A DNA stretch of 51,633 nucleotides from Thermoplasmatota archaeon (GTDB lineage Archaea > Thermoplasmatota > E2 > DHVEG-1), in NCBI GenBank assembly GCA_030616985.1, contig JAUWWG010000001.1, forward strand, positions 1 to 51,633. Reading direction: 5' to 3'. Under the pieces are notes generated by a model. The model made no database searches. It saw only the letters and a list, made by a program, of their open reading frames with translations, and had not been told where the DNA came from. Every line of letters begins with the position of its first letter. Within the stretch, counting starts at the first letter, position 1. This document shows positions 25,801 through 51,417 of this stretch, one piece after another. The position numbers and the translations under genes are program-made.

Positions 25801-26472
25801 TTTAAGCTGCCTTATCTGAGTCGATATCTCATTCAAAATAATTCTTATGCGATCAAGATTGCCATCTACCTCTCCTTTTTCTTCTTCTGCCTTCTTGATA
25901 TCACCGTCAAACGTGCTTATGCCTGCAATTTCATCAACTACCCTTCTGCGTTCAATGGATCCCATTTCTATGAGGCTGGTGACATCACCCTGCTTCACAA
26001 TGTTATATCCATCACCCGAAATACGGGCATGAACTAGCACATTAATAAAATCAGAAAACGAAGAAGCACGACCATTAACATAAAAGTAACTATAATAGTT
26101 ATCAGGATTGCCCTTCAAAGGCGCCCGTTTTATCACCCTCGTAAGTGTCACCTCATCAGAGTCAATAGGCATCCTCCGACCAGTGTTGTCAAAAACAAGT
26201 GAAACCTTACAGTATTTGGCAGGATTCTTATGTTTTTTACCCCCATTGAAGATAAGATCAGTGAGCCTGCCTGCCCGCATAACCTTTGAGCTCTTAGGAC
26301 CAAGTACAAACAGAATGGCATCGGCTATGTTGCTTTTCCCAGATCCATTTGGTCCAGTTATAGCAGTAAACCCTGGAAAAAATGGCACCGTGAGTTTTTT
26401 ACCAAAAGATTTGAAATTTTCCATCTGGACTTCTTTAAGATACAGCTTCCATCCCTTCCTACTTTCCAACAC
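22828..26472 (-). CDS. smc: Chromosome partition protein SMC
   Basis: 1,214 aa. MENFKSFG, Walker A GPNGSGKSN, long coiled coils flanking a hinge, signature LSGGEKS, Walker B FYVLDEVD. GTG/TTG start with AAGTATATATAATATG TATA region ~20-35 nt upstream. Confidence 0.95.
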   Translation of the reverse strand: MLESRKGWKLYLKEVQMENFKSFGKKLTVPFFPGFTAITGPNGSGKSNIADAILFVLGPKSSKVMRAGRLTDLIFNGGKKHKNPAKYCKVSLVFDNTGRRMPIDSDEVTLTRVIKRAPLKGNPDNYYSYFYVNGRASSFSDFINVLVHARISGDGYNIVKQGDVTSLIEMGSIERRRVVDEIAGISTFDGDIKKAEEEKGEVDGNLDRIRIILNEISTQIRQLKNDRDAAFRYKELKDKLYATKAKISLKKKQDVESQLVEISRQIESYERERSTLDEKSKELKNDYAESQKKLEVIEKKIGDVGGDEVKEIRGKVDSLRSEEIKVEERINYSNDEILEIQNEGKEQIAGLETIEKEIDEYTSQRDDLNKQIDEKQAGLDEKETELSSLKETIAQHDDKSMDLTRELAEMREEYNGKNTEIHELKLKRNRFTDKMDALELQIAEMQETKSTYEFELKDIDWQVDEFKKDHQEKHKKTKDVEKNLFEKRKREAELTEQLSDLENVVRRLQRDQSKLQAEYDALQSVHSRYNRAVNEVLKVRDDGTIEGICGTIAELAQVDEKYQVAMEIAAGARMQSIIIDNDEVAARAIRFLQNENLGRATFLPLSKMVAGKPRGKALMVINDPKAHGFAIDLIKFRDEYRAAFWYVFGDTIVVDGLDDARRLMGGVRLVDLKGSLIEAGGAMRGGSRPKTSLSFSNVDRGKLENTTQQLQEAISSQDILSGELANLKKEIVELESNLGYLRTETDKEMQVKDLDVRRKEFTGKLGVLSKDIEAKIKEKEELDAKKNELVSRIEEYKQRLEELDSIKEEKGKLLLKGTKKEQAQKARSLEKEVSTLHESVLTLSSEVDSLGKKIELLTERKEEIYARIEAKTKEIENYKESIKELKESRSRYHDELKALMAVEEQMTGKMKDLTARRDEIYRNAVSIENELDKVNTRVESYYDLISRARYRLPTLESTIRELEEELRLYNVEITDDKIPNVESLKDSMKVIEESMRELEPVNMRALEEYEHQSERKNKLDEDVKHLKDQRKNLVKLASEITAKKKVKFYEVFDEIDRNFKNMYSQLSEGGEGELQLEDPENIFEGGLTMKARPRGKKVLLLSALSGGEKSIASLAFIFAIQNYDPSPFYVLDEVDMFLDGVNAETVSRMVKRNAQDSQFIMVSLRKVALKEANYVYGVTMRDTGVSELIGNIDPASVGPKGEIDVRGGQRYGAT

Positions 26473-32736: not shown

Positions 32737-32868
32737 CTATAACTTTTCTCTTATCCGTTCTTATCTTTACCGCAATCACTACCGTTTATCGAAATTGTGA
32801 TATAAAAGACGGTTTTTAGGTTATTTTGGCATCACATTCTATTTATGAAACTGAATAATAATATCTAG

Positions 32869-32941
32869 TGCCGCGGGAGGGACTTGAACCCCCGGCATCA
32901 CGGTCTTCAGCCGTGCACTCTCCCAACTGAGTTACCGCGGC
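32869..32941 (-). tRNA. tRNA-Phe (GAA)
   Basis: The reverse complement folds as a 73-nt cloverleaf: GCCGCGG-TA-ACTC-AGTTGGGA-GAGT-G-CACGG-CTGAAGA-CCGTG-ATGCC-GGGGG-TTCAAGT-CCCTC-CCGCGGC-A. Anticodon GAA; no encoded CCA. The region is visibly GC-rich against the AT-rich background. Confidence 0.9.
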
Positions 32942-34944: not shown

Positions 34945-37900
34945 TTAGAATAAAAAGGATGGGAGTTTATCCTTTAGATTTTTTACTTTTGTTACTATTT
35001 TTCCCCTTAGTTGTGATTTTTTTGAAGTTGCCTTTATCTGTGCATTCTTTTTGTCTTGGTTCCATTTAATGAACAAAAATGAGACCAACAGAAGTATAAT
35101 TACAAGCAACGCTAAAGCAATAATCGCCGTATTGTCCGTTTGGGCAATAGAAGTAGAATCATGGCTTGCAATTTTTCCAGTTTTAATATCGTAGATATGG
35201 TCCCATTCGCCATCACCATTTTCATCTATAAGATATGTTCCATCGTTTTGTTGTTCAATATTAATTTCTCCACCAGTTGTACTGTTATAGAACATATCAT
35301 AGACTCCATCAGAATCAACGTCTTTGATGTATCCAATATCGCCAACAATGTGTACATCTATTAAGATGGCGTATTCCATGACTCCAGATTCTGTTTGACC
35401 ATCAAATGCTTTTACGGTAATTGTGTATTTTCCAGCAGCATTCCACTTATGTGTTTGTGTTGTTATCGTTTCGATTGGCAGGAAATCGGTTGTTGTCGTT
35501 TCGCCATCATCCCAGTTAAAAATATATTGTATCTCATCATTATCTTCATCAGTAGAAACTGCAACATAGCTGTATTCAGTATTCTTTATACCATTTTGTG
35601 GACCATCTACTTCAGGAGTGATAGGTGGAACGTTTGGCTTTTCCACCACAGAAACATGCGTAACATCCGTATTGTTCCCACCAGGTCCAGTTACTGTCAG
35701 GCATACAGTATATTCTCCAGCCGTCATATATACATATGTCGGAGAAATTCCAGATCCAGTATTTCCATCACCAAACTCCCAACTATAGGAAGTTATAGAA
35801 CCTGTACTTCCTGACCCGTCAAATGTTAATTCTACTCCAACATATACTCCATATGGCCCACTTCCATCAGCAGTCGGTTCTGATGGCGGAGTCTCTCCTC
35901 CATCCCCATTATCGCCACCTGATGGTTTTGATTCAACTGTAAAAGAATAAGACTTGTTGGTCCAATCAAATCCATCTGTTATGTTTACATACCAAATTAT
36001 ATTTGCATCATATGATAATAGAGTTATAAGATCACAACTAATTGTACCGTTTCCCATAGGACTAGAACTACTATTACTGTCACCAGTACTTGCTTCAATT
36101 GTCCAATTCATTAAATCTCCTTCTGAATCAGCAATATTCACACTTATCGATGACTGCTCACTATCAACGTCTGTCCCACTGTGTAAAGGATCCTCGTTTG
36201 ATTGTGAAGGTACTTGATTATTTGCGGTTGTATCATTTGCTTTAGCATACAATGAACTGTATGTGTTATCAGTCTCATTGTATGACCATGCCTGGTAGAA
36301 ATATTGAATTCCACTGTCTAATCCCGTATGTTGGTAACTGGCCTCCGTATCGTTATAAATTTCAGTACCGGCACCTCTTGACCAGTTTTCTGTAGCGTTC
36401 CACTCAATATATGTGCAATTGCTTCCATCATCTGCCCAAGTTAGATTCATCTGGAAACGGCCATCTGCACTTGCAGTGAAATTATCAGGAGTACCGAGTA
36501 TAACCTTTTCTCTTGTTTTAAAGGTAAAACATTTTCTTGTAGCAGTATAATTGTCTGTAGCATTGACCCAAACTACATACTCAGTATCATAATCTAAATC
36601 AGTTAGTGACAATTCTTTCGTCCCATTACTGTCACAATTTATACTATTTGATTGCCCATTACTACACTCCATAGTCCAGTTAAAATTGTCACCATCTGGA
36701 TCTTCAATATAAATACTCCAGACAAACGAAGGTTCTTGATCCAACGAACTATTTACAGTAGTTTGATTTTTAAAAATTGGCGGATAATTAACTGTGTTAT
36801 TGAATATACAGGTTATGAGGCACCCGTTTTTGATAACAGGAACGTTACGTAATGAAGCTATACCACCATTTGCCATGATTTGTTCCGAACAAACCAAGGC
36901 AACCGCACCCACAAACGAATAGCCATTCTGCATAGTTTCTGTAATATTAACATACGCTATTGTCTCACCAGGACTAATGACTACATTAAATACAATGCTT
37001 CCAGTACCATCTGTAAATCCAGAAGGCGACTCAACCCTCCCACCAGTTACCTCTGCAGTGAATTCCCAATCTTTTGCAGGCTCACCGTCGATGAACTTTT
37101 GAACCACTATACTTCTACTAAAAAGGAGAGCTGTCAAATTGAAAAGTACGTCGTCAAGATCAGATATATCGCAAGTAATAACATCCGTATTGACTGAAAT
37201 TACGTCTGGAGGAACTGTGGAAACATTGGATCCGGAAATTGCTTTTAAATTATCTATATTCAACTCACCACGCAAAATACCATGACCTTCAATACCAATT
37301 GATATGATTCTTATTCCATTGTTTTTTGCAGCATTTGCTGCTGCAATGGCAGCACTTATAGCCTTGCCTCGTGGCAGCGTAGGGCTACCATCCGTGATAA
37401 TAACGATTAGATCACCATCCCCAAGCATTGAATTGGCTTTGGAAATTGCTACATCCCAATTTGTGTATTCTATATCCAAGATATGTCCGATGCTGTCAAT
37501 TGCATTGTTTAGGTCTAAAGAATCATTGGTTGGTGTGAGTGAACTCACCACATGCGAATCGAAATCAATAATACCAATGTTGACTTGAGTCGAAGAGAGA
37601 AGAGGATCAACAAAACTTTCAAAAGCTGCTTTTTTAATATCTTGGAGATCACTTGAGTTTAAACTATCTGAACTATCTATCATCAAAACCATGTCTACAT
37701 CACAAGAAGTAGGCAATACGGGATTAGCCTCAAATCCAACGTAGAAATGAGCCGTTCTTATAGTCCACCAAATTATCCAATGATATTGTATCTGAATATC
37801 CCATTCACCGACCTGAGCATCAAGGGGTAATGTCCAATTAGTAGAAACCTCATTTCCATCTACCTCGTCAGATATATGTACAACCATATTATTCAGGTCC

Positions 37901-38169
37901 CTAATTCTTAATCTCATGCGACCACTTCTACCTATATTTCCATACCCATAGATTGTCTCACCTTGAGCAAAAACTGTTTTGGAAATAGAATGATTATTTT
38001 CAAATGTCCCAACAGTACTATCCATAAAGGTACCAGCTTTTGCAGGTGTCGCAAAGAGTGATATTGCTGACACTGAAGCCAACACCATTATCATTACAAA
38101 AAAACCAGCAGTAAATTTCTTAACTTTATTGTTTCTACTTTTCAGTCTGTTTTGTTTTACCATTTTCAT
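34945..38169 (-). CDS. Large anchored surface protein: VWA, Ig/FN3-like and PKD domains, C-terminal anchor cassette (1,074 aa)
   Basis: GGGAGGTGA SD; signal peptide. The VWA MIDAS motif is in DVDMVLMIDSSDSLNSSD. It has FN3-like repeats and PKD-type blocks (LTFDGSGSTGSITSYSWEFGDGNTGSG; NWDDGETT...HKWNAAGKYTITVKAFDG). The C-terminal end has DxDxDG loops, a TM helix and a Lys-rich tail. Confidence 0.85.
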   Translation of the reverse strand: MKMVKQNRLKSRNNKVKKFTAGFFVMIMVLASVSAISLFATPAKAGTFMDSTVGTFENNHSISKTVFAQGETIYGYGNIGRSGRMRLRIRDLNNMVVHISDEVDGNEVSTNWTLPLDAQVGEWDIQIQYHWIIWWTIRTAHFYVGFEANPVLPTSCDVDMVLMIDSSDSLNSSDLQDIKKAAFESFVDPLLSSTQVNIGIIDFDSHVVSSLTPTNDSLDLNNAIDSIGHILDIEYTNWDVAISKANSMLGDGDLIVIITDGSPTLPRGKAISAAIAAANAAKNNGIRIISIGIEGHGILRGELNIDNLKAISGSNVSTVPPDVISVNTDVITCDISDLDDVLFNLTALLFSRSIVVQKFIDGEPAKDWEFTAEVTGGRVESPSGFTDGTGSIVFNVVISPGETIAYVNITETMQNGYSFVGAVALVCSEQIMANGGIASLRNVPVIKNGCLITCIFNNTVNYPPIFKNQTTVNSSLDQEPSFVWSIYIEDPDGDNFNWTMECSNGQSNSINCDSNGTKELSLTDLDYDTEYVVWVNATDNYTATRKCFTFKTREKVILGTPDNFTASADGRFQMNLTWADDGSNCTYIEWNATENWSRGAGTEIYNDTEASYQHTGLDSGIQYFYQAWSYNETDNTYSSLYAKANDTTANNQVPSQSNEDPLHSGTDVDSEQSSISVNIADSEGDLMNWTIEASTGDSNSSSSPMGNGTISCDLITLLSYDANIIWYVNITDGFDWTNKSYSFTVESKPSGGDNGDGGETPPSEPTADGSGPYGVYVGVELTFDGSGSTGSITSYSWEFGDGNTGSGISPTYVYMTAGEYTVCLTVTGPGGNNTDVTHVSVVEKPNVPPITPEVDGPQNGIKNTEYSYVAVSTDEDNDEIQYIFNWDDGETTTTDFLPIETITTQTHKWNAAGKYTITVKAFDGQTESGVMEYAILIDVHIVGDIGYIKDVDSDGVYDMFYNSTTGGEINIEQQNDGTYLIDENGDGEWDHIYDIKTGKIASHDSTSIAQTDNTAIIALALLVIILLLVSFLFIKWNQDKKNAQIKATSKKSQLRGKIVTKVKNLKDKLPSFLF

Positions 38170-38422
38170 CAGTCCTCACCTCCCTTTTTGTAAGTTTGCT
38201 TATTAAGGATTTGTTGTACAATTGTTACCAGACATCCTTGACAGTTCTTTCTAAAAAACATTTCAAATGATTTTACTAAAGAGATATACGTCTTACACTA
38301 TGACTCCCCATTTGCATTTCTGCCTCAATCTCAAATTTAGACCCACATTTACAAATTACTGAAAATATAATAGAAAAAAAGGATGTCAAAGTTTAGTATT
38401 TTTACCTGAGATTTCTTGCTCT

Positions 38423-39793
38423 TTACCTTTGCTTTTTCCTTACTATTAGATAAATTGTGAACAATAAGACTATCGATACAATCGTACCTACAATTAACGC
38501 ATACCATACTGCATTATTTGCCTCTTCTTTGTCCGCTTGATCATCCTGACTATACTCAACGAGTGTTTCTGTCTCAAGATCGTAGACATAATTCCAGTTA
38601 TTGCCATTCCCATCATCAAAAACATCAAGTATCTTTCTAAAAGCATCAATAGTGTGCTGAGTAGTATCAATTCTTATACGATAGTCATCAATGTTATATC
38701 TTATTGCCCCATCAATCTTATCATCTGAACTGTCATACTGTAGAGCAATCAGATTATGAACGCCAAGTATTATCCCAACTTTGTATTTATTTTGATGCTC
38801 AGTATCATTTATTAGTCTAGCAACCTCATATGCATAGGTCAGTCCCTCTGTATATACGCCGTCCGAGGATGAATGAGGGGTTCCATACTCAGGATGCATA
38901 GGATCATAAAATCGACCTAAAGTAGAACAGTCGTTCGTATCCTGAATTTCCAGCAATTTATCATTTAAAACAATAATGGCATCAACATATTTTTTTTCAC
39001 CAGTTATCTTGTAAAGTTTGTTCAATGATTGAGTATGCCATGGAACATATGCTGGATAGTAATTATCTTCCAAATGAACAACATATCTGTCAATATAGAA
39101 ATCCTGTGATTTTACGGCAGCCGCAAGATAAATACTATCGTTTGTTTTGATATACATTTCAACCAAACTAAGTATTGCTTCTCCTGAGTAAAATGTCAGC
39201 AAATAATCCGTATCATATTCGTAATCGGGGGCTATATACCAGGGTTCAAAGGAACCGTCGGTATTCTGCAATGAAAAAATAGAATTCGCAAGTTTTGTAG
39301 CCTCTTCTTGATAATCATCAAAGAATGGACTATATATCAGTGTTCTTAGTGCCATGGCAATAGCCCCTAATTTCGATTTATTATCGTAGAAAATATAACC
39401 CGTTTCGTTATCCTCTTCATACCAATACTCAAAGATAAAATCCAAATTTTTCTGATGTAAAGTTTCCAAAGAAGAATTTGTTTGACATAACTCGGCCAAC
39501 AGTCGAGAGGCCATAAGCTGACGTATCATGTTATTTTTATCGGGATATTCCCCAGTTGATGGTTCGTAGATGTAATTAAAACATCCTTTTTCCCTGAGAT
39601 TAGATGTTAACCATTTTTCAGCCGGATTTAAGGAATTGTTTATCTTTTCATAAGATAAATCAACAATTTCAATACTAGAATAGCCCTCTTCTATGCACCC
39701 TGGAAGGAAAACTGATGAAAATATAAGAGAACCCATTACAGCAAGAATTGTCAGTTTACGGCAAATATGTATCGGACAAAATTTTTTGAACAT
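38423..39793 (-). CDS. Lipobox-bearing, C-terminally anchored (alpha/alpha)-toroid-like protein (456 aa)
   Basis: Signal with LPGC lipobox-like motif. LQNTDGSFEPW resembles the Q-x-x-DG-[GS]-[FW] repeat of prenyltransferase/terpene-cyclase-like alpha/alpha barrels. The C-terminus carries NWNYVYDLETETLVEYS, a TM helix and RKKQR. Confidence 0.6.
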   Translation of the reverse strand: MFKKFCPIHICRKLTILAVMGSLIFSSVFLPGCIEEGYSSIEIVDLSYEKINNSLNPAEKWLTSNLREKGCFNYIYEPSTGEYPDKNNMIRQLMASRLLAELCQTNSSLETLHQKNLDFIFEYWYEEDNETGYIFYDNKSKLGAIAMALRTLIYSPFFDDYQEEATKLANSIFSLQNTDGSFEPWYIAPDYEYDTDYLLTFYSGEAILSLVEMYIKTNDSIYLAAAVKSQDFYIDRYVVHLEDNYYPAYVPWHTQSLNKLYKITGEKKYVDAIIVLNDKLLEIQDTNDCSTLGRFYDPMHPEYGTPHSSSDGVYTEGLTYAYEVARLINDTEHQNKYKVGIILGVHNLIALQYDSSDDKIDGAIRYNIDDYRIRIDTTQHTIDAFRKILDVFDDGNGNNWNYVYDLETETLVEYSQDDQADKEEANNAVWYALIVGTIVSIVLLFTIYLIVRKKQR

Positions 39794-39960
39794 ACTTCTA
39801 AAAATCTTTTAACCTCCAAATATCTCTATCCTTCATTATTGTTATTTAACCTTGTTTTATAATTGTTTCTCAGGTCGGAGTTAATCCAGCAAAGCAATAT
39901 CTTAGAAAGACGGGTAGTAATTAGGAAAATAAGAAATAAAAAAAAGAAAAAAAAGAGGTT

Positions 39961-41391
39961 TTATTTTTTAGATTTTTTACTGGTAGTTTTCTTTTTTGGC
40001 TGTGATTTTTTCTCAGCTGCCTTCTTTTGTGCTTTCTTTTTATCATTGCTTCGTTTTACCAGATAGCCTAATATGATTAGGAAAAGTATTACGATTATTG
40101 CTAAAACAATAAGTGCGGTGTTATCTGGCTCTGGCGTTGGTTCACTGTACTCGGTAAGTGTGTCTGTTTCAATATCATAAATCCAATCCCATGAGTCGTC
40201 TCCATCATCATCGAGGAGATATGTTCCATCATCTTGTTTTTCAACGTCGGTTTCTTGGGCTGATGTATCATTATGGAAAGAATCATAGGTTCCATCCGCA
40301 TCGTCGTCAATGAGGTAGCCAATGTCATCCACAAGATGCACATCTATTAACACTGTGATTTGATTGGTGGAAGATACGGTCTCATTGTCAGAAGCTCTAA
40401 CTGTGAGAGTGTATTTACCAGCAGACATCCAGCTATGGATCTGCGTTGATGCTGTGCCGTTTGGTAGAAACTCAGTTTCTGTAACTTCACCATCACCCCA
40501 ATTAATTATATATTGAATGGTATCATTGTCTGGGTCAGTTGACTGGAAGATATAGGTATACTCGGTGTCTTTTGTTCCCTCAGATGTTCCATCTATTGTC
40601 GGTTCTGTGGGTGGGAGATTTGCTTTTGAAATTATAACATCAATGGTATCTGTATCCGTAGCACCTACGTTATCAGTAACTCTCAATGTCACTGAATAAG
40701 TGCCCTCTGCATCAAAAGTATGTGTAGCAGTGCTAGAAGTTGAGTTATAATCATAGATTCCATCGTTGTCCCAATCCCATTCATACAAGTCAATTGTGCC
40801 ATCACTATCAGTACTAAGAGAACCGTCAAAGTAGATTGACTCATCCACAAATCCAGATGTTTGACTTTCAGATGCGTCTGCTATTGGTGGTGCGTTTCCA
40901 CCACCAATGTATCCATCACCATCGCCGTCTCCGTCTCCATCGCCGTCTCCATCGCTGTCACCATCTCCATCGCCGTCTCCGTCTCCATCGCCGTCTCCAC
41001 TAGTTGTATCAACATGTAAATCTATCATGTCCACACTTTCTTCCACGGGAACATTATATGTCGGATTATCTGTTATTACACCTGAAATGGAAACTCCAAA
41101 TGTGCCTGTTTCACCTTCATGTCCTACAAAGGAAATAGAATACTTGCCTCCATTCTTTGTAGTATCCTCATGATCATTACTTGAAAATGATAACGTAACA
41201 GTTACTCCATCTTTGAGTTCGTCGTCAATGTACAACTCCCCAGCAACCGTATGAAACTCTTCTGCTTTTATTGTTGGAACAATTGCTACTGAGACTGATG
41301 CAAGCATTATACTCATTATTACTATCGATAATATTTTTCTTTTATTCATAAATCTCTTCCCCATTTTTTTGTATTGGTAAGTTGTTTTCAT
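39961..41391 (-). CDS. Anchored PKD-domain surface protein with a (GD)n linker (476 aa)
   Basis: Signal peptide. 29-residue GD/SD repeat. PKD blocks (YFDGSLSTDSDGTIDLYEWDWDNDG; NWGDGEVT...HSWMSAGKYTLTVRASD) are paralogous to the C-terminal third of the 1,074-aa protein. It has the same anchor cassette. Confidence 0.8.
   Translation of the reverse strand: MKTTYQYKKMGKRFMNKRKILSIVIMSIMLASVSVAIVPTIKAEEFHTVAGELYIDDELKDGVTVTLSFSSNDHEDTTKNGGKYSISFVGHEGETGTFGVSISGVITDNPTYNVPVEESVDMIDLHVDTTSGDGDGDGDGDGDGDSDGDGDGDGDGDGDGYIGGGNAPPIADASESQTSGFVDESIYFDGSLSTDSDGTIDLYEWDWDNDGIYDYNSTSSTATHTFDAEGTYSVTLRVTDNVGATDTDTIDVIISKANLPPTEPTIDGTSEGTKDTEYTYIFQSTDPDNDTIQYIINWGDGEVTETEFLPNGTASTQIHSWMSAGKYTLTVRASDNETVSSTNQITVLIDVHLVDDIGYLIDDDADGTYDSFHNDTSAQETDVEKQDDGTYLLDDDGDDSWDWIYDIETDTLTEYSEPTPEPDNTALIVLAIIVILFLIILGYLVKRSNDKKKAQKKAAEKKSQPKKKTTSKKSKK
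40912..40998 (-). repeat. In-frame short tandem repeat encoding (Gly-Asp)n
   Basis: 87 nt of GGNGAY-type units (plus strand ...ccatcgccgtctccgtctccatcgccgtctcc...) encode GDGDGDGDGDGDSDGDGDGDGDGDGDG. Confidence 0.9.
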
Positions 41392-41428: not shown

Positions 41429-44400
41429 TTATCGTTTGGTATCTACAGTAATTTGTATTTCTTGTACAGCTAGTATCGCACCGTCACCTATAACCTTTAA
41501 GCATATGAAGTACGTACCATCTGGTGTTTCCTCAGGAACCGTTATGCTCACGTTGAATTCTAATGTTTCTCCTCCGCCGACGTCATAGTGTGCTTCGGGC
41601 TCCCATTCGAACCAGTCTTCATAACCCTCACTTACTTCAAGGGTTAACTCACTGACTGTTGCGGTAATATCTTCAATAAGTTCAACGATTGCATCTCCAA
41701 GGTCACCTGAACTGGCAAGTTCTTCAAATAAACCACCGGTTTCACTAGTTGCATACAACCAAGGACAATCATCATATCCACCTGAATCAATAACTACCAC
41801 TGAAATATCAGCGGCCTTTAAATCAGCTATAACATCAGCCCACGGTAAATCATCACTCGTTCCTGCAATAGCATCTCGTCCTGGGTCTACACCAGTATTG
41901 CCCGAACATCCAAATGTACTAAAGTCACAGTCATGAGGAATATTGTCCTCGAATATTACTACGATTTTTCTCGCTCCGAATCTCCAACCAACGAATTGGG
42001 ATTCATAAAGAGCCCTTGCATATGACTCAGGTCCATCAGCTCCGCCACCTAAAACGAGAGCGTTTATGGCTGTGCTAACTGCACTTGCGTCAGTTGTTAT
42101 ATCTTGATCTAGACTCCATGCATAATCGCCATATGAGGGATAACCATAGTCGCTTGAATATCCACAGTAATTGTAATATGCGGGATAATCCATGAAAGAT
42201 CCTACACCGAAGTAAGAGTTACTAATATTAGAACGTATATCGGTCATGATATCTATGGCGCTTGTCTTTGCGCTGCTTATCACACCACCCATACTTCCGG
42301 TTAGATCAAATAGGAACATGACATCAAGCTTACCTATTGGAATCTCATCAGTGATAATTGTCTTGTTATCCCAGACGGATTCTCCTGGAATCATGGTTGC
42401 TTCGAAAGATTCAGGGCTCACTGTTGCTCCACCACCTGCTGTACATTCAAGACATTGAATGGAAATGGATGCATCATCTGTTGCAGTGCATCCTGCCATA
42501 TCTGTTGCCTTAGCTGTAATGTTGTAGGTATGATCTAATGTCCATATGCCTTCTGAATCATATTCCCAGTATTCATCATAGTCGTGAGCACATAGGAGCC
42601 ATGTTTCTTCTGGAATCCAAGCACTACCATTCCAATATGCATCCGCAGTAATATCGTGTATTAGTACATGTACTTCATCTACTCCTGTTTCATAGTCGTA
42701 TGCATAGAAATTCATGTTACCTGGTCCTTCACATCTAACATCGCCATCCATCGGATCAAGTATTTCAACTTCAGGTCCACTAGTATCAGTGTAAAATCTT
42801 GCTTCGGTGTCGTTCATTTTCACCCAGTAGTCCTTACCACAGTACATATCTTCTAGATCAACGAAACCCATTTCCACTAGTTCCTTAATCCACGAATGCC
42901 ACGCGTCTTCTACCACATCATAATAGTATATCTTAGAGTACATACCATCTATAGAGGCTAGTACACTTTCTACAGAGTTATTACAGCTAATTCCACCAAA
43001 TGGAATTGTTAATTTGTTCCATCCGTTTTGCATCCATTGATCCCATACAGTACTACTGCAAATCTCAAATGTCACGGGTATTGCAAATTCAGAGTTCATA
43101 TCTCCATCCACTGCTAAAGCTTGCAGTGTTATTTCAGCTCCATTTTGATATTTAAAGATATCAATATCTGCATACCAATAACCATCAGTTGTATTGTATT
43201 CTGGATCATACCAGAGTGTTGGTGCATCACGTCTACCACCAGGTATCCATAGTTTAACTGTTAGTTCATCCCAAGATGATTCATGATCAAACGCAGTAAT
43301 ATTTACTTTTAACGTTCTTTCGCAATGAGTGGATCCAAACATCGGATCGTTAATCATTATAGTAGGTCCAGTATCACCAGGTGAACACACCCAGAATGTC
43401 TCATTATCTATTTCTCCACGGTTACCAAGGCAATCATATGCTCTTGCTTCTAGATAATGTACACACCCTCTTGTCAAAGTGATACATTCTGTATAGTCAG
43501 TCCATTCAGTCCAACTTCCAAGATACCAGATTCTATATTCAATGGTTACTCCTTCACACGGACAACATCCTTCGTCACCTATCTCAGTGAAACAAATCTC
43601 GGTATCAGGGAATATCATCCATTGATCATGACCTGACGAATCATTTTCAAGTTTTACTTTTGGATCGCCAACTATCTTTTCAGGTTTTGGCGGTGGTGTA
43701 TCATCTACATAGAATGTCTCATGATCCCAGAATGCATCATCCAATCCGTTTCCAAGACAGTCGTAAGCTCTAACAACTAATTCATGAACGCATTCTTCTG
43801 TGAAATTGAATGGCTCTTTGTATTCGATCCAGTCAGTCCAAACCCAAACTTCATAATCGTAAAATCCAATCATGTATTCAATAGTTACATTTGTACATGG
43901 ACAGCAACCCATTTCCAGTGCATCGAGTGTGATAAGTGTTTCAGTTGTTACACAGTAATCGTCTTCACCCATCTCGCCGCAGTCTGTACAGTTGGGATCA
44001 CCAACGGTTTTGATGATCTCAGGTGGTGTTTCATCAACGTAGAATGTTTCATTATCCCAGTACATTTCATCCATACCGTTACCAAGACAGTCATATGCTC
44101 TAACATATAATTGGTGCTCGCATTCCTCGGTGAAATTGAATGGCTCAATATACTCAATCCAGCTACCATCTCCAATCTTGTATTCAATAGTTACACCCTC
44201 ACTCGGACAGCAACCTTGCTCTACCGCTTCAAGTGTAATCAATGTATCAGTTGTAACACAGTAATCATCATCACCCATTTCACCGCATCCAGTGCAATTC
44301 AGATCACCAACAGTCTTGATGATCTCAGGTGGTGTATCATCAACGAAGAATGTTTCATTATCTATTTCTCCAAGGTTGCCGAGGCAATCATAGGCCCTTG

Positions 44401-47400
44401 CTTCAAGATAATGTACACATTCTCCACTTAGGGTAATGTTGCCAGTATAATTCATCCAACTTGTCCATGTTCCCAAGTACCAAATTCTATATTCAATTGT
44501 AAAATCTCCGCTTGGGCAACATCCTAGATCAACAGCATCAAGTGTAATGTTAGTATCTGTTGTTACACAGTATCGATCTGGAACAAGGACTTCAATAAAT
44601 GTTTTCTGAGCGTCCTCGCCTGCATCACAAAGAATGGCACACCATTCACCTATCGATGGCATGAAGCCTTCCCCAAAGTTCGTTGCATTTTCAACCATCG
44701 ATTTTCCAGCATCGTTTGATGGATCATTGCCCCCATCTACGAAATACCAAATTGCTTCTTGGATATCTGTCTTGGTTGCATCTGGATGTTTATGATTTAT
44801 GATATAGTTTACCATATCCCAGTCAGAATCTGGCCAAGGCATTAATGGATCATAAGAACACCATAGATCAACTGAATAATCAACTCCATTACTGATGAGC
44901 TGATTTTGATCTACACACCAACCAAGATAGTCGCCATTGGCAATATCATATCCAAATGGAACATTGCTGAGAGTGACATCAAAATAACTGTTAGCTCCCC
45001 AATGTTGAACAACCATAGTCACTGAGCTTGAAGGCAATTTCAAAGATTTACAGTTAAGAGTACAGTTTGGATCTCCAACAGTCTTTTCTATTATTGGAGC
45101 AGTGATATCAACATAGAATGTCTCATTATCCTCGAACTCGTTACCCAAAATATCTGTTGCACGAATAAGCAGGTAATGCATGCATTCTTCGGTGAGATAG
45201 AGAGGTTCATCTTCGAGTTCTTCAAGCAGCATCCATCCCGTCCAGTCTCCATTGTACCAGATATTGTATTCAACTGTATCAAGACCAACACCACCCATAC
45301 ATCCGCGATCTTCAGCGTAGAATGTAATTGGTGTGTCTGGTGTAATACAATATTCTTCTCCAGTTACAATAGTGCAATTTGGATCGCCGACGGTTTTAAA
45401 AATAGTTGGTGGGGTTAAATCAACATAGACAAGTTGTTTTCGACCAACGACTTTATTTTCTAGTTTATCAATTGCTTGATGATAGATGAAGTGCATACAT
45501 TCTTCATTAAGTTGAATGTCAATAATCATTTTTCCCTCAGTATCATCAAGGTCTCCGCTAACACTCACATTAGCATCTTCATATCCTGTGTCATTGTTAT
45601 CATAAATGATTCCTTCTGCAATGATTTGTGTTTTATTATTTTCAATTCTCCAAATAATACGGTCTACACCCGCTATACCACCAGTACATCCAGTATCATT
45701 GGCAAAAATTCTTTTTATACTTTGATTATTGATGTAGCGTGCTCCACCAGGTAAAAGATAAGAATCTATGTAGGTGAAATCATCGTTTGAAGGCGCATCA
45801 AAATCAACGAGAAAATCATATGGTGGTAAATAATTCCAGTTTCCCATTGTATCTACACAATGCGCATGGATTTGATGAAAGCAACTTTCCTCAATGTAGA
45901 ACTGGATGGATATTCTACCATCATTGAGGTCTGCATCTGTGGTAAAGGGGTTTCCGGTTTGTTGGTTATCATAGACAAAAACCCATGCTGGGTCATCCCA
46001 GCTTCCAAATACATCCGATTTGAATAATTTATATTTAATAAAGTCAGTTCCTGTTTCCGCATCTGATGAGTTAATCCATACCGGTGTTTGTGACCCAATT
46101 AAATCAAGCCATTCCAACCCTGTATTGTATACATCTTCCATAAGTGGTGTTCCAAGTTCAATGGTTTGCGTTGGTGGGTAGTCTTCACCGTTATCTTCAC
46201 AGACTGTTGTTTCTTCTACCTTTGTAGTTGGTGGGGTCTCATCGCTTTCAATAGTTGCATAGTTGGAAATTATTGTTTCAGATGGAGTTAAGGGATCAAC
46301 CTGGACAAGCAACCATAGACAATCTCCTTCCTCAGTAGAAATAGTTCCAATATCCCAGCTAACATTGTGGTTAACACTATCATAGCTCCCACCAGGTGAA
46401 GCATCAATAAATATCAATTCTGATGGAAGAGTATCCTCAATCATTACATTATTAACCGTGAACTCGTTCATATTATCAAAACAGATACTATAATTAATAT
46501 CATCGCCAGGACTTACACACTCACCTTCTCTTATTCCATCATCTTTATCAAGATTCAAAGGATTATATGAAACATCCGAAATAGGTATGCATAAACCTGC
46601 AGGATCACCAATATCACCTGTAATATCAAGCTGAGTAAATGGAGTAGTACTCGTATCCCAAGCGATTAACTGATCCCCATTATATCCATGAGTAGAATAT
46701 ACATAGCCTGTTATCTGATCAACAGCAAGACCCATAGCACCATTAGTCATCGTATGTGTTGTCTCAGTAGCACTGTTAAGATCATATTTACATAATACAT
46801 TATTACCTGCAAATCCAGCTCCAGTATAGAGAAAACCACGTACGTAATCAACTGCAATACCAATGGGATAATTACTCAAAGTAATCGCTCCCTGAAGACT
46901 CCACGTTGCCGTATCATAATATGTAACATTTAATTGATAATAATTAGAAACATAAAGAATATCTTTGGCTTCATCTAAAGCAATACCATACATATCACTA
47001 CCTGGAAGGTTAATAGGAAAACCTGCCTCCAATGTTAGCGTCTTAGCAACTGGATCCCAAACATAAGAATAAAGTTTATCTGTACCTCTGTCTACTATAT
47101 AGAGCAGTTCCTTCTCATGGTCATAAACAACACCTGCAAGGTTACTTGCTCCAGGTGCTACTACTGATCCTTCTCCAACCATAGTAGTACCATTAATAAG
47201 CGAAAGAGTACCACTACTTTCCTGTGTCAAAAAAAGATAACCAGAGTTCGAATCAATAGCCAGGCCAACAGAACCCCAACCAAAGGCAGTGTTATATGTA
47301 GCTTGATAAGTAAATGTCCCATCAACATTAATATTATATGCCTGAATGGGCGCAGCATTATCATTGGTGTTGGAACACACATAAAGTGACTTTGCACTAA

Positions 47401-47473
47401 CATTTCCACAAGCAACTGCTAATAGAGCGACAAACACCAGCGTCAAAAATATTACAAACATTTTCTTTTTCAT
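41429..47473 (-). CDS. Giant secreted surface protein (2,014 aa): beta-propeller, DUF11-like, six Cys-rich Ig-like modules (one with a thioester-domain-like insert), Ig-like region, VWA, C-terminal beta-sandwich; no membrane anchor
   Basis: The signal peptide is MKKKMFVIFLTLVFVALLAVACG. It has YVTN-type propeller repeats (GIAVD..LYV.N pattern) and a DUF11-like block NYSICFDN...VMIEDTLPSELIFIDASPGG. Modules are of the type ETFYVD-TPP-I-KTVGDPNC...GCCP...IEY...H.L..RAYDCLGN. The VWA motif is LDVMFLFDLTGSMGG. It ends ...ITVDTKR with no hydrophobic tail. Confidence 0.9.
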   Translation of the reverse strand: MKKKMFVIFLTLVFVALLAVACGNVSAKSLYVCSNTNDNAAPIQAYNINVDGTFTYQATYNTAFGWGSVGLAIDSNSGYLFLTQESSGTLSLINGTTMVGEGSVVAPGASNLAGVVYDHEKELLYIVDRGTDKLYSYVWDPVAKTLTLEAGFPINLPGSDMYGIALDEAKDILYVSNYYQLNVTYYDTATWSLQGAITLSNYPIGIAVDYVRGFLYTGAGFAGNNVLCKYDLNSATETTHTMTNGAMGLAVDQITGYVYSTHGYNGDQLIAWDTSTTPFTQLDITGDIGDPAGLCIPISDVSYNPLNLDKDDGIREGECVSPGDDINYSICFDNMNEFTVNNVMIEDTLPSELIFIDASPGGSYDSVNHNVSWDIGTISTEEGDCLWLLVQVDPLTPSETIISNYATIESDETPPTTKVEETTVCEDNGEDYPPTQTIELGTPLMEDVYNTGLEWLDLIGSQTPVWINSSDAETGTDFIKYKLFKSDVFGSWDDPAWVFVYDNQQTGNPFTTDADLNDGRISIQFYIEESCFHQIHAHCVDTMGNWNYLPPYDFLVDFDAPSNDDFTYIDSYLLPGGARYINNQSIKRIFANDTGCTGGIAGVDRIIWRIENNKTQIIAEGIIYDNNDTGYEDANVSVSGDLDDTEGKMIIDIQLNEECMHFIYHQAIDKLENKVVGRKQLVYVDLTPPTIFKTVGDPNCTIVTGEEYCITPDTPITFYAEDRGCMGGVGLDTVEYNIWYNGDWTGWMLLEELEDEPLYLTEECMHYLLIRATDILGNEFEDNETFYVDITAPIIEKTVGDPNCTLNCKSLKLPSSSVTMVVQHWGANSYFDVTLSNVPFGYDIANGDYLGWCVDQNQLISNGVDYSVDLWCSYDPLMPWPDSDWDMVNYIINHKHPDATKTDIQEAIWYFVDGGNDPSNDAGKSMVENATNFGEGFMPSIGEWCAILCDAGEDAQKTFIEVLVPDRYCVTTDTNITLDAVDLGCCPSGDFTIEYRIWYLGTWTSWMNYTGNITLSGECVHYLEARAYDCLGNLGEIDNETFFVDDTPPEIIKTVGDLNCTGCGEMGDDDYCVTTDTLITLEAVEQGCCPSEGVTIEYKIGDGSWIEYIEPFNFTEECEHQLYVRAYDCLGNGMDEMYWDNETFYVDETPPEIIKTVGDPNCTDCGEMGEDDYCVTTETLITLDALEMGCCPCTNVTIEYMIGFYDYEVWVWTDWIEYKEPFNFTEECVHELVVRAYDCLGNGLDDAFWDHETFYVDDTPPPKPEKIVGDPKVKLENDSSGHDQWMIFPDTEICFTEIGDEGCCPCEGVTIEYRIWYLGSWTEWTDYTECITLTRGCVHYLEARAYDCLGNRGEIDNETFWVCSPGDTGPTIMINDPMFGSTHCERTLKVNITAFDHESSWDELTVKLWIPGGRRDAPTLWYDPEYNTTDGYWYADIDIFKYQNGAEITLQALAVDGDMNSEFAIPVTFEICSSTVWDQWMQNGWNKLTIPFGGISCNNSVESVLASIDGMYSKIYYYDVVEDAWHSWIKELVEMGFVDLEDMYCGKDYWVKMNDTEARFYTDTSGPEVEILDPMDGDVRCEGPGNMNFYAYDYETGVDEVHVLIHDITADAYWNGSAWIPEETWLLCAHDYDEYWEYDSEGIWTLDHTYNITAKATDMAGCTATDDASISIQCLECTAGGGATVSPESFEATMIPGESVWDNKTIITDEIPIGKLDVMFLFDLTGSMGGVISSAKTSAIDIMTDIRSNISNSYFGVGSFMDYPAYYNYCGYSSDYGYPSYGDYAWSLDQDITTDASAVSTAINALVLGGGADGPESYARALYESQFVGWRFGARKIVVIFEDNIPHDCDFSTFGCSGNTGVDPGRDAIAGTSDDLPWADVIADLKAADISVVVIDSGGYDDCPWLYATSETGGLFEELASSGDLGDAIVELIEDITATVSELTLEVSEGYEDWFEWEPEAHYDVGGGETLEFNVSITVPEETPDGTYFICLKVIGDGAILAVQEIQITVDTKR
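43403..45436 (-). repeat. Six tandem ~100-110-aa Cys-rich Ig-like modules inside the giant gene
   Basis: Module boundaries by hand count: residues 680-783, 784-1039 (with insert), 1040-1141, 1142-1251, 1252-1357. Each is delimited by [EQ]-[TL]-[FV]-[YFW]-V-D-x-T-[PA]-P. Confidence 0.8.
44579..45058 (-). other. Thioester-domain (TQXA/TED)-like insert in module 2 of the giant protein
   Basis: Cys853 sits in GDYLGWCVDQ (codon 44915-44917). Gln905 sits in MVNYIINHKHPDATKTDIQEAIWYFVDG (codon 44759-44761). This gives aromatic-C-aliphatic-D and Q-x-A-I-W contexts like Gram-positive adhesin TEDs. Confidence 0.4.
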
Positions 47474-48499: not shown

Positions 48500-48676
48500 A
48501 AAATATTTCCTTACGCTCCTATTATGAAGGCAGGTTTCAGATTGTATACACCATCCAACACATATTCTAAATGTTTGACATGCAACTTCATCCCACTTGT
48601 ATTCGGCTTTTCCCAAACGTTTTAAACAACTATTTATACAAAACCAATTATAACAAAGGACAGAGGTTTGGTTTTA

Positions 48677-50992
48677 ATGAAAATTGATAAAAAAATTATT
48701 TCGCTGCTAATAGTCGGTCTGCTTGCATCAACAGTTATGCCAGGATGTATCGAACAACAAAGTGGAAGTAGCGGAATAGGATTGATCACCATACCCGCTG
48801 CAAGTGCATCTGCTTCGGATAACCCAAAATACGCTATGGCATCATATTACAGTTCAGAAGAACTAATTATAAACACCAGTGTACCTCAATATGACCTGCC
48901 TTTAGATTTAACATCGATAACAAACGTAAATGACATCTATTCTCGATTTTACCTTAACGAGGAGCAAAAAAATCTTTTGAGTGGAAATGGCTTCGTTGTC
49001 ATAGACCGCGGCTTTGAAAATGATATAATCCGGCCATATAAAGAAATGAAACTAGCCGACATACCAATTTTTGTAACCAGTGATACATTGCTGCATTTAT
49101 ACCACATACAATTTGATGAAATACTGAAGGGAATAGAAGAAAGGGAATTCTTTGGCAAAATTCTAGATCTAAGCAAAGCACTTTTTGATAAATCAGTAGA
49201 AGGCTATCAGAACTATATTGATAGTGATCTAAAGGAGGTGGCACGGCGCAATATCGCCTATTTGGCTGTTGGGCTGTCTCTATTGCAAACGCCAACAGAA
49301 GAATATGATGGGTCTGAGGATATACAAACAGTCGATTTTAGCATCCCTAGTTATGTAAACGATGAAGTAGAAGGAGAAGTTGCATTTATTGAATCTCAAG
49401 ATGGTTTTCATGATAGTCCACTATTTCTCTATAGGGAGGATTACTCCCAATACAAACCACGGGGACACTACATGCAATCAGAGAAACTCAAACGCTATTT
49501 CAAAGCCATGATGTGGTACGGACGAATGTCCTTTTTGATGAAAGGCGGAACTCCCCATTGCCAATACTGTGATTTTCTGATATCTGATAATGATGCAAAG
49601 ATTCAAACAATTCAGGCAAGCTTGATAGCTACTACATTACCAAGCGTGACGATAGATGACGAATCCCTTGAAAACATATGGACAAGAATATACAAGGTTA
49701 CGTCTTTCTTTGTGGGAACCGCAGATGATCTTACGCCATATGAATATCTTGACTGCATAAAGGATGTTTTCGGATCGGAATTCAATGCAACCGAACTTGC
49801 CAATGATACAAAACTACTCGAGTTGAAAGTGGAACTAGTACAACTCAGAAACCCAAAGATATATGGTGGAACAGGAGAAATAGTCATACTTAAGCCACCT
49901 GGAGTGCCATTTACCATTGAGGATCTCAACGAAACGCTTGACAAAACCAAAGGCATGCGGCTCATGGGACAACGATTCATACCAGATTCATACATGTTCC
50001 AACAACTGGTATTCCCTGCAGTAGATCCATTTACTGGAACAGGAAAACCATTCACCATGGAGTACACCGGTGGAGGGCCTGCCCGTGTTTTTCCCAGAGG
50101 ACTTGATGTCATGGCAGTACTAGGATCAGACAGAGCCCTTGAAATCCTCGAAAACGAAGGCGACACAGAATATGAACACTACTATGAACAACTAAACATG
50201 TTGCAGGAAAACTTCTCCAACCTGAACATTACGGAATGGAACCGCAATCTATATTTCAGTTGGATATACACCCTAAAATCATTATTAAAAGAGTACAACA
50301 GCAGCTATCCGACATTTATGAATACAGCCGCATGGCAGGATAAGGGACTACAGACAGTACTTGCATCCTGGAGTGAACTGCGCCATGATACAATCCTTTA
50401 TGGAAAACAGAGCTATACACCAATTAAAGCAACGTCAGTAGAACCTCCGGAAAAACCTGTTGTTGGATATGTCGAACCAGTACCAGAATTCTACTTACGA
50501 ATTCATGCACTCACCAAAATGACACGAGACGGACTAACAGACCTTAATGTTCTAAACGACACAGAAACCAATAGATTACAAAGCCTAGAAATAATTCTCG
50601 AACGTTTAATTAACATATCAAAAAAAGAGCTTGAAAACAAGGAACTTACAGATTCTGACTATGAATTCATCAGAAACTTTGGTGAAAACCTGGACAGTAT
50701 AGTAACTGGAGTCAAAGATAAGGGAAAAGAAACAACGATTATTGCAGATGTACACACCGACACAAACACAGGACAAGTCTTAGAAGAAGGAGTTGGATAT
50801 GTCGACCTAATCCTCGTTGCGTACACGGCTCCTAATGGCAACATCATAGTTGGCGTAGGTCCCGTCCTTAGCTACTATGAATTTAAACATCCAATGGATA
50901 ATCGACTAACCGATGAGCAATGGACCGACATGCTACAAGGCGGGCAAACTCCAGATAGACCTGATTGGATTATCTCATTTATATCAGAATAA
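48677..50992 (+). CDS. DUF3160-like secreted lipoprotein (771 aa)
   Basis: The ORF track opens at TTG 48668; ATG 48677 follows GGACAGAGG. Lipobox-like VMPGC. PIFVTSDTLLHLYHIQFDEILK and YSQYKPRGHY match DUF3160 signature segments as I recall them. Confidence 0.7.
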   Translation: MKIDKKIISLLIVGLLASTVMPGCIEQQSGSSGIGLITIPAASASASDNPKYAMASYYSSEELIINTSVPQYDLPLDLTSITNVNDIYSRFYLNEEQKNLLSGNGFVVIDRGFENDIIRPYKEMKLADIPIFVTSDTLLHLYHIQFDEILKGIEEREFFGKILDLSKALFDKSVEGYQNYIDSDLKEVARRNIAYLAVGLSLLQTPTEEYDGSEDIQTVDFSIPSYVNDEVEGEVAFIESQDGFHDSPLFLYREDYSQYKPRGHYMQSEKLKRYFKAMMWYGRMSFLMKGGTPHCQYCDFLISDNDAKIQTIQASLIATTLPSVTIDDESLENIWTRIYKVTSFFVGTADDLTPYEYLDCIKDVFGSEFNATELANDTKLLELKVELVQLRNPKIYGGTGEIVILKPPGVPFTIEDLNETLDKTKGMRLMGQRFIPDSYMFQQLVFPAVDPFTGTGKPFTMEYTGGGPARVFPRGLDVMAVLGSDRALEILENEGDTEYEHYYEQLNMLQENFSNLNITEWNRNLYFSWIYTLKSLLKEYNSSYPTFMNTAAWQDKGLQTVLASWSELRHDTILYGKQSYTPIKATSVEPPEKPVVGYVEPVPEFYLRIHALTKMTRDGLTDLNVLNDTETNRLQSLEIILERLINISKKELENKELTDSDYEFIRNFGENLDSIVTGVKDKGKETTIIADVHTDTNTGQVLEEGVGYVDLILVAYTAPNGNIIVGVGPVLSYYEFKHPMDNRLTDEQWTDMLQGGQTPDRPDWIISFISE

Positions 50993-50997
50993 AAAGT

Positions 50998-51417
50998 TCA
51001 AATTTCGGTTGCAAAAATTTTAATTTTTCTTTTTTCCCATGCATCTTCAGAAAGTGTGTTGTAAATATTTTCCTTAGGTGTGTCCTTAGAATGTTTTTCA
51101 GTGTGAATATCTTCTACTTTTTTGCTTTCTTCCATTGCATAGTTTAAAATAGTGTTTTTCTTAAGCTGCCAGTAATGCGTACGCCACGCTCTACCGTCAT
51201 ATAATATTGTTTCTTCCCGCCCAGTTACGATCATTCCTTCTTCCTCTAAGATGTAAAACAGCTGCCTATCTTCAGGATCCAAGTAATTATCAATAATGCG
51301 GTCATCGTACCCAAATAGATCCAGGACAAATCCAGCGGTTCTACTGGCCCTCCTCGCATCAATACCCATTCTGTTTGATATTGCTTTTGACAAGTCATTC
51401 AATGTTATAATTTTCAT
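50998..51417 (-). CDS. Hypothetical protein (139 aa)
   Basis: ORF with a plausible globular N-terminal ~90 aa (…DRQLFYILEEEGMIVTGREETILYDGRAWRTHYWQLK…) and a Lys/Glu-rich tail. Family not recognised. Confidence 0.55.
   Translation of the reverse strand: MKIITLNDLSKAISNRMGIDARRASRTAGFVLDLFGYDDRIIDNYLDPEDRQLFYILEEEGMIVTGREETILYDGRAWRTHYWQLKKNTILNYAMEESKKVEDIHTEKHSKDTPKENIYNTLSEDAWEKRKIKIFATEI

Follow-up and report, generated by a model that had tools for sequence, protein, structure and literature searches.

A predicted minimal thioester domain nested in a stalk module of a giant archaeal surface protein

The DNA analysed here, a stretch of 51,633 nucleotides from contig JAUWWG010000001.1 of a Thermoplasmatota archaeon (hereafter the window), encodes on its minus strand a giant surface protein of 2014 residues, in which one module of a repeat array is interrupted by a 162-residue insert with the predicted fold of a thioester domain (TED). 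From the N-terminus onward, the protein consists of a predicted signal peptide, a beta-propeller-like region (a weak Pfam match near the N-terminus), a DUF11/CLIPPER domain, an array of OmpL47-type modules, one of which carries the insert, further Ig-like regions and a VWA-like domain. Residue numbers refer to the 2014-residue protein unless insert residues are specified. The features of the gene and of the interrupted module are as follows.

41429-47473, minus strand: giant surface protein, 2014 residues, predicted secreted (open reading frame list and translation)
47393-47473, minus strand: predicted Sec signal peptide, residues 1-27 (MKKKMFVIFLTLVFVALLAVACGNVSA), recognised by eye in the sequence
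46232-46516, minus strand: DUF11 (CLIPPER) domain, residues 320-414 (Pfam PF01345, 42.7 bits, cut-off 24.6; TIGR01451, 32.9 bits, cut-off 24)
43364-45406, minus strand: OmpL47-type beta-barrel/Ig-like repeat array, residues ~690-1370 (NCBIfam NF047446, 106.7 bits, cut-off 40, in five stretches)
45059-45085, minus strand: N-terminal half of host module 2, KTVGDPNCT, residues 797-805, directly before the insert
44573-45058, minus strand: the insert, residues 806-967, 162 residues, TED-fold (AlphaFold2, Foldseek and a family hidden Markov model, HMM, 196.8 bits; Pfam TED 14.7 bits, below cut-off)
44318-44572, minus strand: C-terminal half of host module 2, YCVTTDT...IDNETFFVDDTPPEII, residues 968-1052
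41924-42340, minus strand: VWA-like domain, residues ~1712-1850, with a DxTxS motif (FDLTGSM) resembling a metal ion-dependent adhesion site (Pfam Integrin_beta VWA, 21.8 bits, cut-off 24.8; two other weak VWA families)

Each module of the array starts with K[TI]VGD-PNCT and resumes, after a loop, with [YW]C[IV]T[TP], and a regular-expression scan placed the module starts at residues 693, 797, 1053, 1155 and 1266. The loop between the two halves measures 6, 9, 9 and 10 residues in the modules at 693, 1053, 1155 and 1266, respectively, whereas that of the module at 797 measures 162. An insertion of about 160 residues between KTVGDPNCT and YCVTTDT of the second module had been described in the first-pass annotation of this DNA, and the loop lengths bear it out. 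Its comparison with insert-free modules also stands, although it counted five others, where four sister modules, five modules in total, are identified by sequence. As for the extent it gave to the insert (44579-45058), the boundary at 45058 is right, but 44579 falls two codons short of the true end at 44573. A codon check placed the two residues it had singled out exactly where it had put them, namely Cys853, set by GDYLGWCVDQNQ (codon 44915-44917), and Gln905, set by IQEAIW (codon 44759-44761). The insert matches the HMM built from its own homologues with E=4e-60, and its domain occurs in one copy only in the six-frame translation of the window.

Structure prediction with AlphaFold2, based on an alignment of 37 sequences, yielded a model of the insert with a predicted local distance difference test score (pLDDT) of 92 and a predicted template modelling score (pTM) of 0.88. 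The model comprises four strands (insert residues 13-17, 25-31, 42-48 and 60-67), three helices (80-88, 96-106 and 116-128) and two further strands (139-145 and 153-158). The core of known TEDs consists of an antiparallel beta-barrel of six strands and a bundle of three helices, with the bond-forming Cys on strand C, the bond-forming Gln on strand Q and a TQxx-Phi-W motif (Phi, hydrophobic) on helix alpha2 (PMC6194298). The six strands and three helices of this fold are all present in the predicted structure of the insert. Searching the model against 350,542 PDB chains with Foldseek revealed that the nine best matches are all TEDs, below which there is noise. The best of them are structures of CpTIE-TED from Clostridium perfringens (5a0g/5a0d), with probabilities of 0.97-1.00, E-values from 1.2e-3 and query TM-scores of 0.43-0.57; Cpa (2xid) follows in sixth place, and the class II TEDs 6fwy, 6fwv and 6fx6 come later. 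A second AlphaFold model (pLDDT 87.7) was computed for P0253, a homologue from another subfamily sharing ~31% identity with the window domain. Its ten best matches are likewise all TEDs, led by the N-terminal TED of Cpa (4c0z, E=1e-5), then 5a0g, FNE (5dcq) and 5a0n, and the eleventh drops to E=0.18 and a probability of 0.03.

Two elements that distinguish the known TED classes are missing from the insert model. The alpha0 helix of class I is not seen, as no helix separates the strand of insert residues 60-67 from the helix of residues 80-88; the P0253 model has a short helix at residues 118-121, and this alpha0-like feature varies within the family. The class II beta-sandwich, which is seven-stranded, comprises ~75 residues and contains a slipknot, is also absent, as strand P begins at insert residue 139, helix 3 having ended at 128. 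As modelled, the insert is a bare TED core, with neither alpha0 nor beta-sandwich.

At the sequence level, the link to curated TED families runs mainly through relatives of the insert. A search with TED models had been suggested in the first-pass annotation, and for the window copy itself it came out negative. Against Pfam PF08341 the insert reached 14.7 bits (E=0.043), below the gathering cut-off of 22, with insert residues 48-118 aligned to profile positions 4-85, and the NCBIfam TQXA/TED models (e.g. TIGR03934) gave zero matches to it at E<=10. The PF08341 cut-off is passed by four family members, L050 (25.0 bits), P0249 (27.3), P0253 (28.0) and P0208 (23.6), and among ten distant members TED is the sole Pfam match in six and is also present in a seventh. 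In every alignment that extends to the beginning of the profile, the conserved Cys occupies profile position 4, which is also where Cys68 of the pBatNRS213 Tie adhesin falls. This adhesin, which served as our Tie reference in place of pLS20 (AB615352), is a member of the Tie family of pLS20, which has been reported to be a class II TED adhesin. It scores only 18.8 bits, indicating that PF08341 is insensitive to divergent TEDs; being likewise sub-threshold, the 14.7 bits of the window copy are thus not evidence against membership. The NCBIfam models also gave zero matches at E<=1 for the ten relatives or the Tie adhesin, and NCBIfam holds no model for either the insert family or Tie. The family consensus sequence has zero Pfam matches, and neither the insert nor the family profiles retrieved any TED from all PDB chain sequences, even at E<=10. 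Since a phmmer search of the Tie adhesin against the PDB retrieved no TED either, and identity among TEDs is as low as 12% (PMC4450167), we did not count this null result against membership. Aligning the family profile by hhalign to the Tie adhesin, which is one sequence rather than a TED alignment, gave an uninformative probability of 1.8%. Given that two models match essentially only TEDs and that family members pass PF08341 with their Cys at position 4, the insert very likely belongs to the TED superfamily, and on this point the first-pass annotation is supported.

The residues that could form or frame a thioester were then considered, with conservation counted over 220 aligned domain instances (smaller denominators are non-gap counts). 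The motifs in question are as follows.

44909-44920, minus strand: W852-C853-V854-D855, Cys motif ending the third strand (strand C), with Cys853 as the predicted thioester Cys
44792-44812, minus strand: V888-N889-Y-I-I-N893-H894 on helix 1 (insert residues 80-88)
44747-44764, minus strand: I904-Q905-E-A-I-W909 on the central helix (insert residues 96-106), equivalent to TQxx-Phi-W
44591-44611, minus strand: A955-Q956-K-T-F-I-E961 at the beginning of strand Q, the last strand, with Gln956 (codon 44606-44608) as the predicted thioester Gln

In TEDs the bond-forming Cys lies within the motif [YFL]C-Phi-zeta (zeta, hydrophilic) on strand C, and the TQxx-Phi-W motif lies on alpha2, where the Gln and Trp of the motif make hydrogen bonds to the Cys backbone and are dispensable for the bond, the Gln having proved dispensable in Cpa mutants (PMC4450167, PMC6194298). 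W-C-V-D and I-Q-E-A-I-W of the insert correspond to these two published motifs, a likeness that the first reading of the sequence had caught. The equivalent of Cys853 is kept in 216 of 218 instances and preceded by Trp in 204, Phe in 8 and Tyr in 4, Trp being a conservative departure from Tyr, Phe or Leu. The equivalents of Gln905 and Trp909 are kept in 214 and 207 of 220, respectively, with the Thr of TQ replaced by Ile or Val. The thioester partner Gln of TEDs lies on the last strand, and universal conservation is limited to the two bonding residues (PMC4450167, PMC6194298). In the insert family, this place is taken by Gln956, whose equivalent is conserved in 205 of 207 instances; in both the insert and the P0253 models, Cys853 is the final residue of strand C and Gln956 stands two residues ahead of strand Q. 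The Cys motif, the last-strand Gln and the helix-2 Q-x-x-Phi-W that mark membership of the TEDs are therefore all present, in the right position and conserved. Beyond these, the equivalents of Asn889 (216/220), Asn893 (220/220) and Glu961 (195/202, near-invariant) form a family-specific set, and we infer that Asn889 and Asn893 line the thioester pocket.

The earlier proposal of a bond between Cys853 and Gln905 finds no support in this topology, because the TQxx-Phi-W Gln sits on helix alpha2 and is dispensable in TEDs, whereas the last-strand Gln956 fits. Judged by topology and conservation, the bond partner of Cys853 is most likely Gln956, and Gln905 and Trp909 are predicted, by analogy with TEDs, to hydrogen-bond the Cys853 backbone instead of bonding to the Cys. 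The attached caveat, that the Cys-Gln spacing is clearly shorter than in characterised domains, falls away as well: with Gln956 as the predicted partner the spacing is 103 residues, which explains why it had seemed too short. In validated TEDs the spacing is 129-204 residues, and the one with the shortest known spacing, CpTIE-TED (129), is also the best structural match of the insert.

The insert represents a large family. Used alone as a query, it retrieved 36 homologues at 39-55% identity, mostly proteins of 210-275 residues, and in most of the 36 the domain stands between a signal peptide and a hydrophobic C-terminal tail. An exhaustive profile search of 1.84 billion representatives of metagenomic clusters at 50% identity returned 2,498 clusters with E<=1e-3, of which 1,606 reached E<=1e-10. 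Many of these are proteins of ~220 residues in which the domain is preceded by a signal peptide and followed by a C-terminal sorting signal. A precomputed PF08341 label is attached to 2 of the 120 best database matches, the remainder being unannotated or "hypothetical". Scanning one genome per GTDB species yielded 67 loci, none of them in Bacillota. The archaeal loci belong to Bathyarchaeia, Thermoplasmata/Thermoplasmatales, Woesearchaeota, Nanoarchaeota, Baldrarchaeota and Methanobacteriota, and the bacterial loci to Planctomycetota, Verrucomicrobiota, Ignavibacteria, Acidobacteriota (Bryobacterales, Solibacteraceae), Cyanobacteria and Caldilinea, together with one metagenome-assembled genome (MAG) each of Pseudomonadota and Acidimicrobiia. 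Among these loci, the closest match to the window domain, at 59% identity, comes from a Thermoplasmata MAG.

The architectures of the relatives range from minimal to very large. A PEF-CTERM-like end, in which a P[EQ][FY] motif precedes a hydrophobic segment and basic residues, occurs in 46 of 116 short homologues and a PEP-CTERM end in 3; other relatives carry dockerin or type IX secretion system (T9SS) tails. In longer relatives the domain stands beside SdrD_B, DUF11, DUF7507, PKD, cadherin-like and beta-helix stalk domains. P0039 (3310 residues) has five TED-like domains with a period of 459 residues, interleaved with 12 DUF7507 and 7 DUF11 stretches, and P0037 (616 residues) has three in tandem, together with a T9SS C-terminal sorting domain. 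Going by their domain content, these two would be multi-harpoon proteins, exceeding the two TEDs of Cpa. P0038 (2639 residues), a paralogue resembling the window protein, contains two copies, each nested in a KTVGLPNCP...YCVTT loop. The insert family is very likely a large, mostly unannotated branch of the bacterial thioester adhesin domains. A separate subfamily, comprising the Ignavibacteria and Bacteroidota loci L062, L055, L058, L059 and L063 as well as P0249 and P0208, consists of proteins of ~360-390 residues, in which a conserved N-terminal domain of ~190 residues is followed by the TED-like domain and a C-terminal ETAWG...NWA motif. L062 has Gly at the Cys position.

Our reading of the locus, to which we assign a probability of roughly 65%, is that the insert is a minimal TED nested in a surface loop of an OmpL47-type stalk module, in a secreted archaeal protein resembling fibrillar adhesins, with a Cys853-Gln956 thioester that serves covalent adhesion. 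The insertion, the family and its taxonomic range, the predicted fold and the conservation pattern are results of the analysis. We infer bond formation, the role of Gln956 as partner and covalent adhesion from homology and conservation. In the putative mechanism, the thiol of Cys853 at the end of strand C would attack the side-chain amide of Gln956 at the start of strand Q during folding. Ammonia would leave, and the resulting Cys-Gln thioester would be buried where barrel and helix bundle meet, with Gln905 and Trp909 of the central helix hydrogen-bonding the Cys backbone. Upon ligand docking, a primary amine, for example a lysine side chain, would attack the thioester, yielding an intermolecular isopeptide bond to Gln956 and a freed Cys thiol. 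The cell would thereby be tethered covalently, possibly reversibly. An adhesin context fits the signal peptide, the DUF11/CLIPPER domain, the repeat stalk and the VWA-like domain of the window protein, as well as the stalk domains or sorting tails of its relatives.

Several observations weigh against a thioester adhesin at this locus. The TM-scores to solved TEDs are modest (0.43-0.60). The window copy remains under the Pfam threshold, the NCBIfam models miss it, and the searches of PDB sequences found no TED. The insert lies mid-protein, at residues 806-967 of 2014, not at a distal tip. The coevolution signal for Cys853 and Gln956, described below, comes from very few sequences. Because Asn889, Asn893, Glu961 and Pro934 are invariant or nearly so and have no described TED counterpart, the chemistry could differ from that of TEDs. 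Finally, we know of no catalytic requirement for thioester formation that could be checked.

Of the other explanations, the one that survives best, though we consider it unlikely, is a TED fold without a thioester, that is, a non-covalent binding module on an ancestral scaffold, whose invariant Cys and Gln would be structural or in contact with a ligand. The internal position of the domain and its weak sequence similarity to validated TEDs would suit such a module, and the additional invariant Asn889, Asn893 and Glu961 suggest a family-specific site. It is difficult to reconcile with the pairing of a lone Cys, unpaired and near-invariant in secreted proteins, with a near-invariant Gln, which is the exact TED signature. 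None of the other Cys residues of the insert is conserved, so there is no conserved partner for a disulfide, and a conserved-disulfide reading was accordingly rejected. Moreover, the Cys and the Gln are lost jointly in P0092, where Arg stands at the Cys position, as in no other aligned instance, and Pro at that of Gln956, a position substituted in just one further instance; its helix-2 Trp is also changed to Leu. From these substitutions, P0092 looks like a naturally disarmed copy.

A Cys853-Gln905 thioester, which would close an unusually compact loop of 52 residues, is highly improbable. Its appeal lies in the conservation of Gln905, its well-known TQxA(I/V)W-like motif and the fact that the equivalent Gln directly adjoins the thioester in TEDs. 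But in all solved TEDs this Gln is the alpha2 residue that hydrogen-bonds the Cys backbone and could be dispensed with in Cpa mutants, and in the insert model Gln905 is likewise found on the central helix. Furthermore, six instances with Arg, Glu, Ser or Leu in place of Gln905 retain both the Cys and the Gln956 equivalent. Mean-field direct coupling analysis over 10,585 column pairs placed Cys/Gln956 at rank 11, Cys/Trp909 at rank 39 and Cys/Gln905 at rank 418; the Cys/Gln956 signal derives from a single real sequence and from rows with gaps, and serves as corroboration only.

We give equally little credence to a cysteine-dependent enzyme in the stalk that would use Cys853 as its catalytic nucleophile, for instance a peptidase or amidase of papain- or transglutaminase-like type. 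An invariant Cys with conserved Asn, Gln and Glu, and a mostly kept His894 (148/195), might evoke an active site, but no peptidase or transglutaminase appears among the Foldseek matches of either model or in Pfam or NCBIfam. The Cys ends a beta-strand instead of starting a helix, and no His is invariant, the position of His894 being Asn in 38 instances. A merely superficial resemblance, in which chance motifs occur in a prediction artefact or in filler specific to the lineage, might be read into the E-value of 0.043 of the window copy alone against Pfam TED but is already refuted by the 2,498 homologous clusters, the 67 loci in named genomes, the two independent confident models that match only TEDs and the four members above the Pfam cut-off. 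A complement-type CGEQ thioester was also rejected, as CGEQ is absent from the protein and Foldseek returned zero C3/A2M matches.

Read as a minimal TED, the insert can be compared with systems of known structure. With class I TEDs (CpTIE-TED, 5A0G; the N-terminal TED of Cpa, 4C0Z; SfbI-TED; PnTIE-TED, 5A0N; PF08341), which provide the best structural matches for both models, it shares the barrel and three-helix bundle, the aromatic-Cys-hydrophobic-hydrophilic motif on strand C, the Q-x-x-Phi-W on helix 2, the last-strand Gln and a linker of ~10 residues between helix 3 and strand P. It differs from them in lacking alpha0 between strand D and helix 1, in having Trp rather than Tyr, Phe or Leu before the Cys and Ile or Val rather than Thr before the helix-2 Gln, in its Cys-Gln spacing (103 versus 129-153 residues) and in the extra invariant Asn889, Asn893 and Glu961 of its family. 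In addition, class I TEDs are anchored through LPXTG, whereas the archaeal and Gram-negative hosts of the insert family use PEF-like, PEP-CTERM or T9SS sorting. With class II TEDs (BaTIE, 6FWV; SaTIE, 6FX6; EfmTIE86, 6FWY; the pLS20-family Tie) the insert shares the upper-lobe core and the absence of alpha0, but it lacks their 75-residue beta-sandwich and slipknot, in place of which ~10 residues join helix 3 to strand P.

The nesting itself also has a counterpart. An isopeptide (Ig-like) domain of Streptococcus pyogenes Cpa (2XID) harbours an inserted TED (PMC6194298), a domain-in-domain topology shared with the window protein, where the TED-like domain is likewise spliced into a loop of a stalk-type beta-domain. 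The host domain of Cpa is of the CnaB isopeptide type in a sortase-assembled pilin, whereas the window protein has an OmpL47-type host module and is not such a pilin. TIE proteins and fibrillar adhesins have a comparable secreted architecture, in which a reactive or adhesive domain is combined with a repeat stalk, and predicted isopeptide domains co-occur with the TED-like domain both in the window protein (DUF11/CLIPPER) and in relatives such as P0039 (DUF11/DUF7507). In Gram-positive TIE proteins, however, the TED occupies the N-terminal tip, the stalk is built of isopeptide or ester domains and LPXTG provides the anchor, whereas the domain of the window protein is internal, starting at residue 806, and neither LPXTG nor a visible C-terminal anchor is present. 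Complement C3/C4 and alpha2-macroglobulin (CGEQ) employ the chemistry proposed here, a Cys-Gln thioester that captures nucleophiles of the target, on an unrelated fold and motif; bacterial TEDs are considered an invention independent of complement-type thioesters (PMC4450167).

Elsewhere in the giant protein, the DUF11/CLIPPER domain is of interest, as intramolecular isopeptide bonds have recently been shown for this family (PMC12617251). By analogy with TIE proteins, the 2014-residue protein may combine thioester and isopeptide chemistry. No C-terminal membrane or hydrophobic anchor and no LPXTG was seen in its sequence. From the second OmpL47-type module onward, every module has two adjacent Cys within the motif G-C-C-P-[SC], at residues 985, 1088, 1190 and 1303, and the whole protein contains 64 Cys. 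The paralogue P0038 has CC at the matching position. Such features are uncommon in secreted proteins and may point to disulfide or metal chemistry in the stalk.

Several other genes of the window place the giant gene in its surroundings.

48668-50992, plus strand: full-length DUF3160 protein (699 bits), encoded on the opposite strand immediately upstream of the giant gene
50998-51417, minus strand: DUF6015 protein
26965-28800, plus strand: sensor with three PAS domains and DUF835
9630-10649, plus strand: NosD-like parallel beta-helix protein

Directly downstream of the giant gene and on the same strand, three genes (34945-41391, minus strand) encode proteins of 476 residues with PKD, 456 residues with zero Pfam matches and 1074 residues with VWA and PKD; the giant gene and these three have the appearance of a gene cluster for surface proteins. 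Housekeeping genes for RadA, SMC, the GTPase HflX and tRNA-Phe(GAA) lie at 14856-15806, 21966-26472, 6663-7934 and 32868-32941, which confirms an archaeal chromosomal context; the RadA is of the archaeal type (508.6 bits, cut-off 259), and a weak match to ScpA (segregation/condensation protein A) adjoins the SMC gene.

Published work, up to a 2026 preprint, treats TEDs as a feature of Gram-positive bacteria, namely Firmicutes and Actinobacteria (PMC4450167, PMC6194298). In the searchable full-text literature up to 2026 we found no description of TEDs in archaea or with PEP-CTERM-type anchors, in agreement with the first-pass annotation, which was not aware of a covalent harpoon adhesin having been characterised in archaea. 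The link between the insert family and TEDs is discoverable in databases, in which a few members pass Pfam TED, yet appears to be undiscussed. In the broader picture that we favour, though by a smaller measure than the reading of the locus itself, thioester harpoon adhesion extends beyond Gram-positives through a distinct minimal class of TEDs (~150 residues, without alpha0 or beta-sandwich and with its own invariant Asn, Asn and Glu). This class would be widespread in uncultivated archaea and Gram-negative phyla, both as minimal proteins consisting of a signal peptide, the TED and an archaeosortase/exosortase-type tail and, in giant adhesins, as copies that are nested or in tandem.

To our knowledge, TEDs are the sole microbial adhesin modules that bind their targets covalently. 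The analysis corrects a recurring annotation error, in that the Gln of the TQXA motif is not the bond-forming Gln. If this broader picture is true, the minimal class would represent the first predicted reactive-thioester surface chemistry in Archaea. If the bond forms, a domain of ~150 residues, smaller than any characterised TED, could serve engineered covalent capture, and ~2,500 protein clusters now called "hypothetical" would gain a function. Covalent adhesion would then extend to Archaea and many Gram-negative environmental phyla, providing a concrete molecular handle on the attachment of uncultivated sediment archaea to particles or partners.

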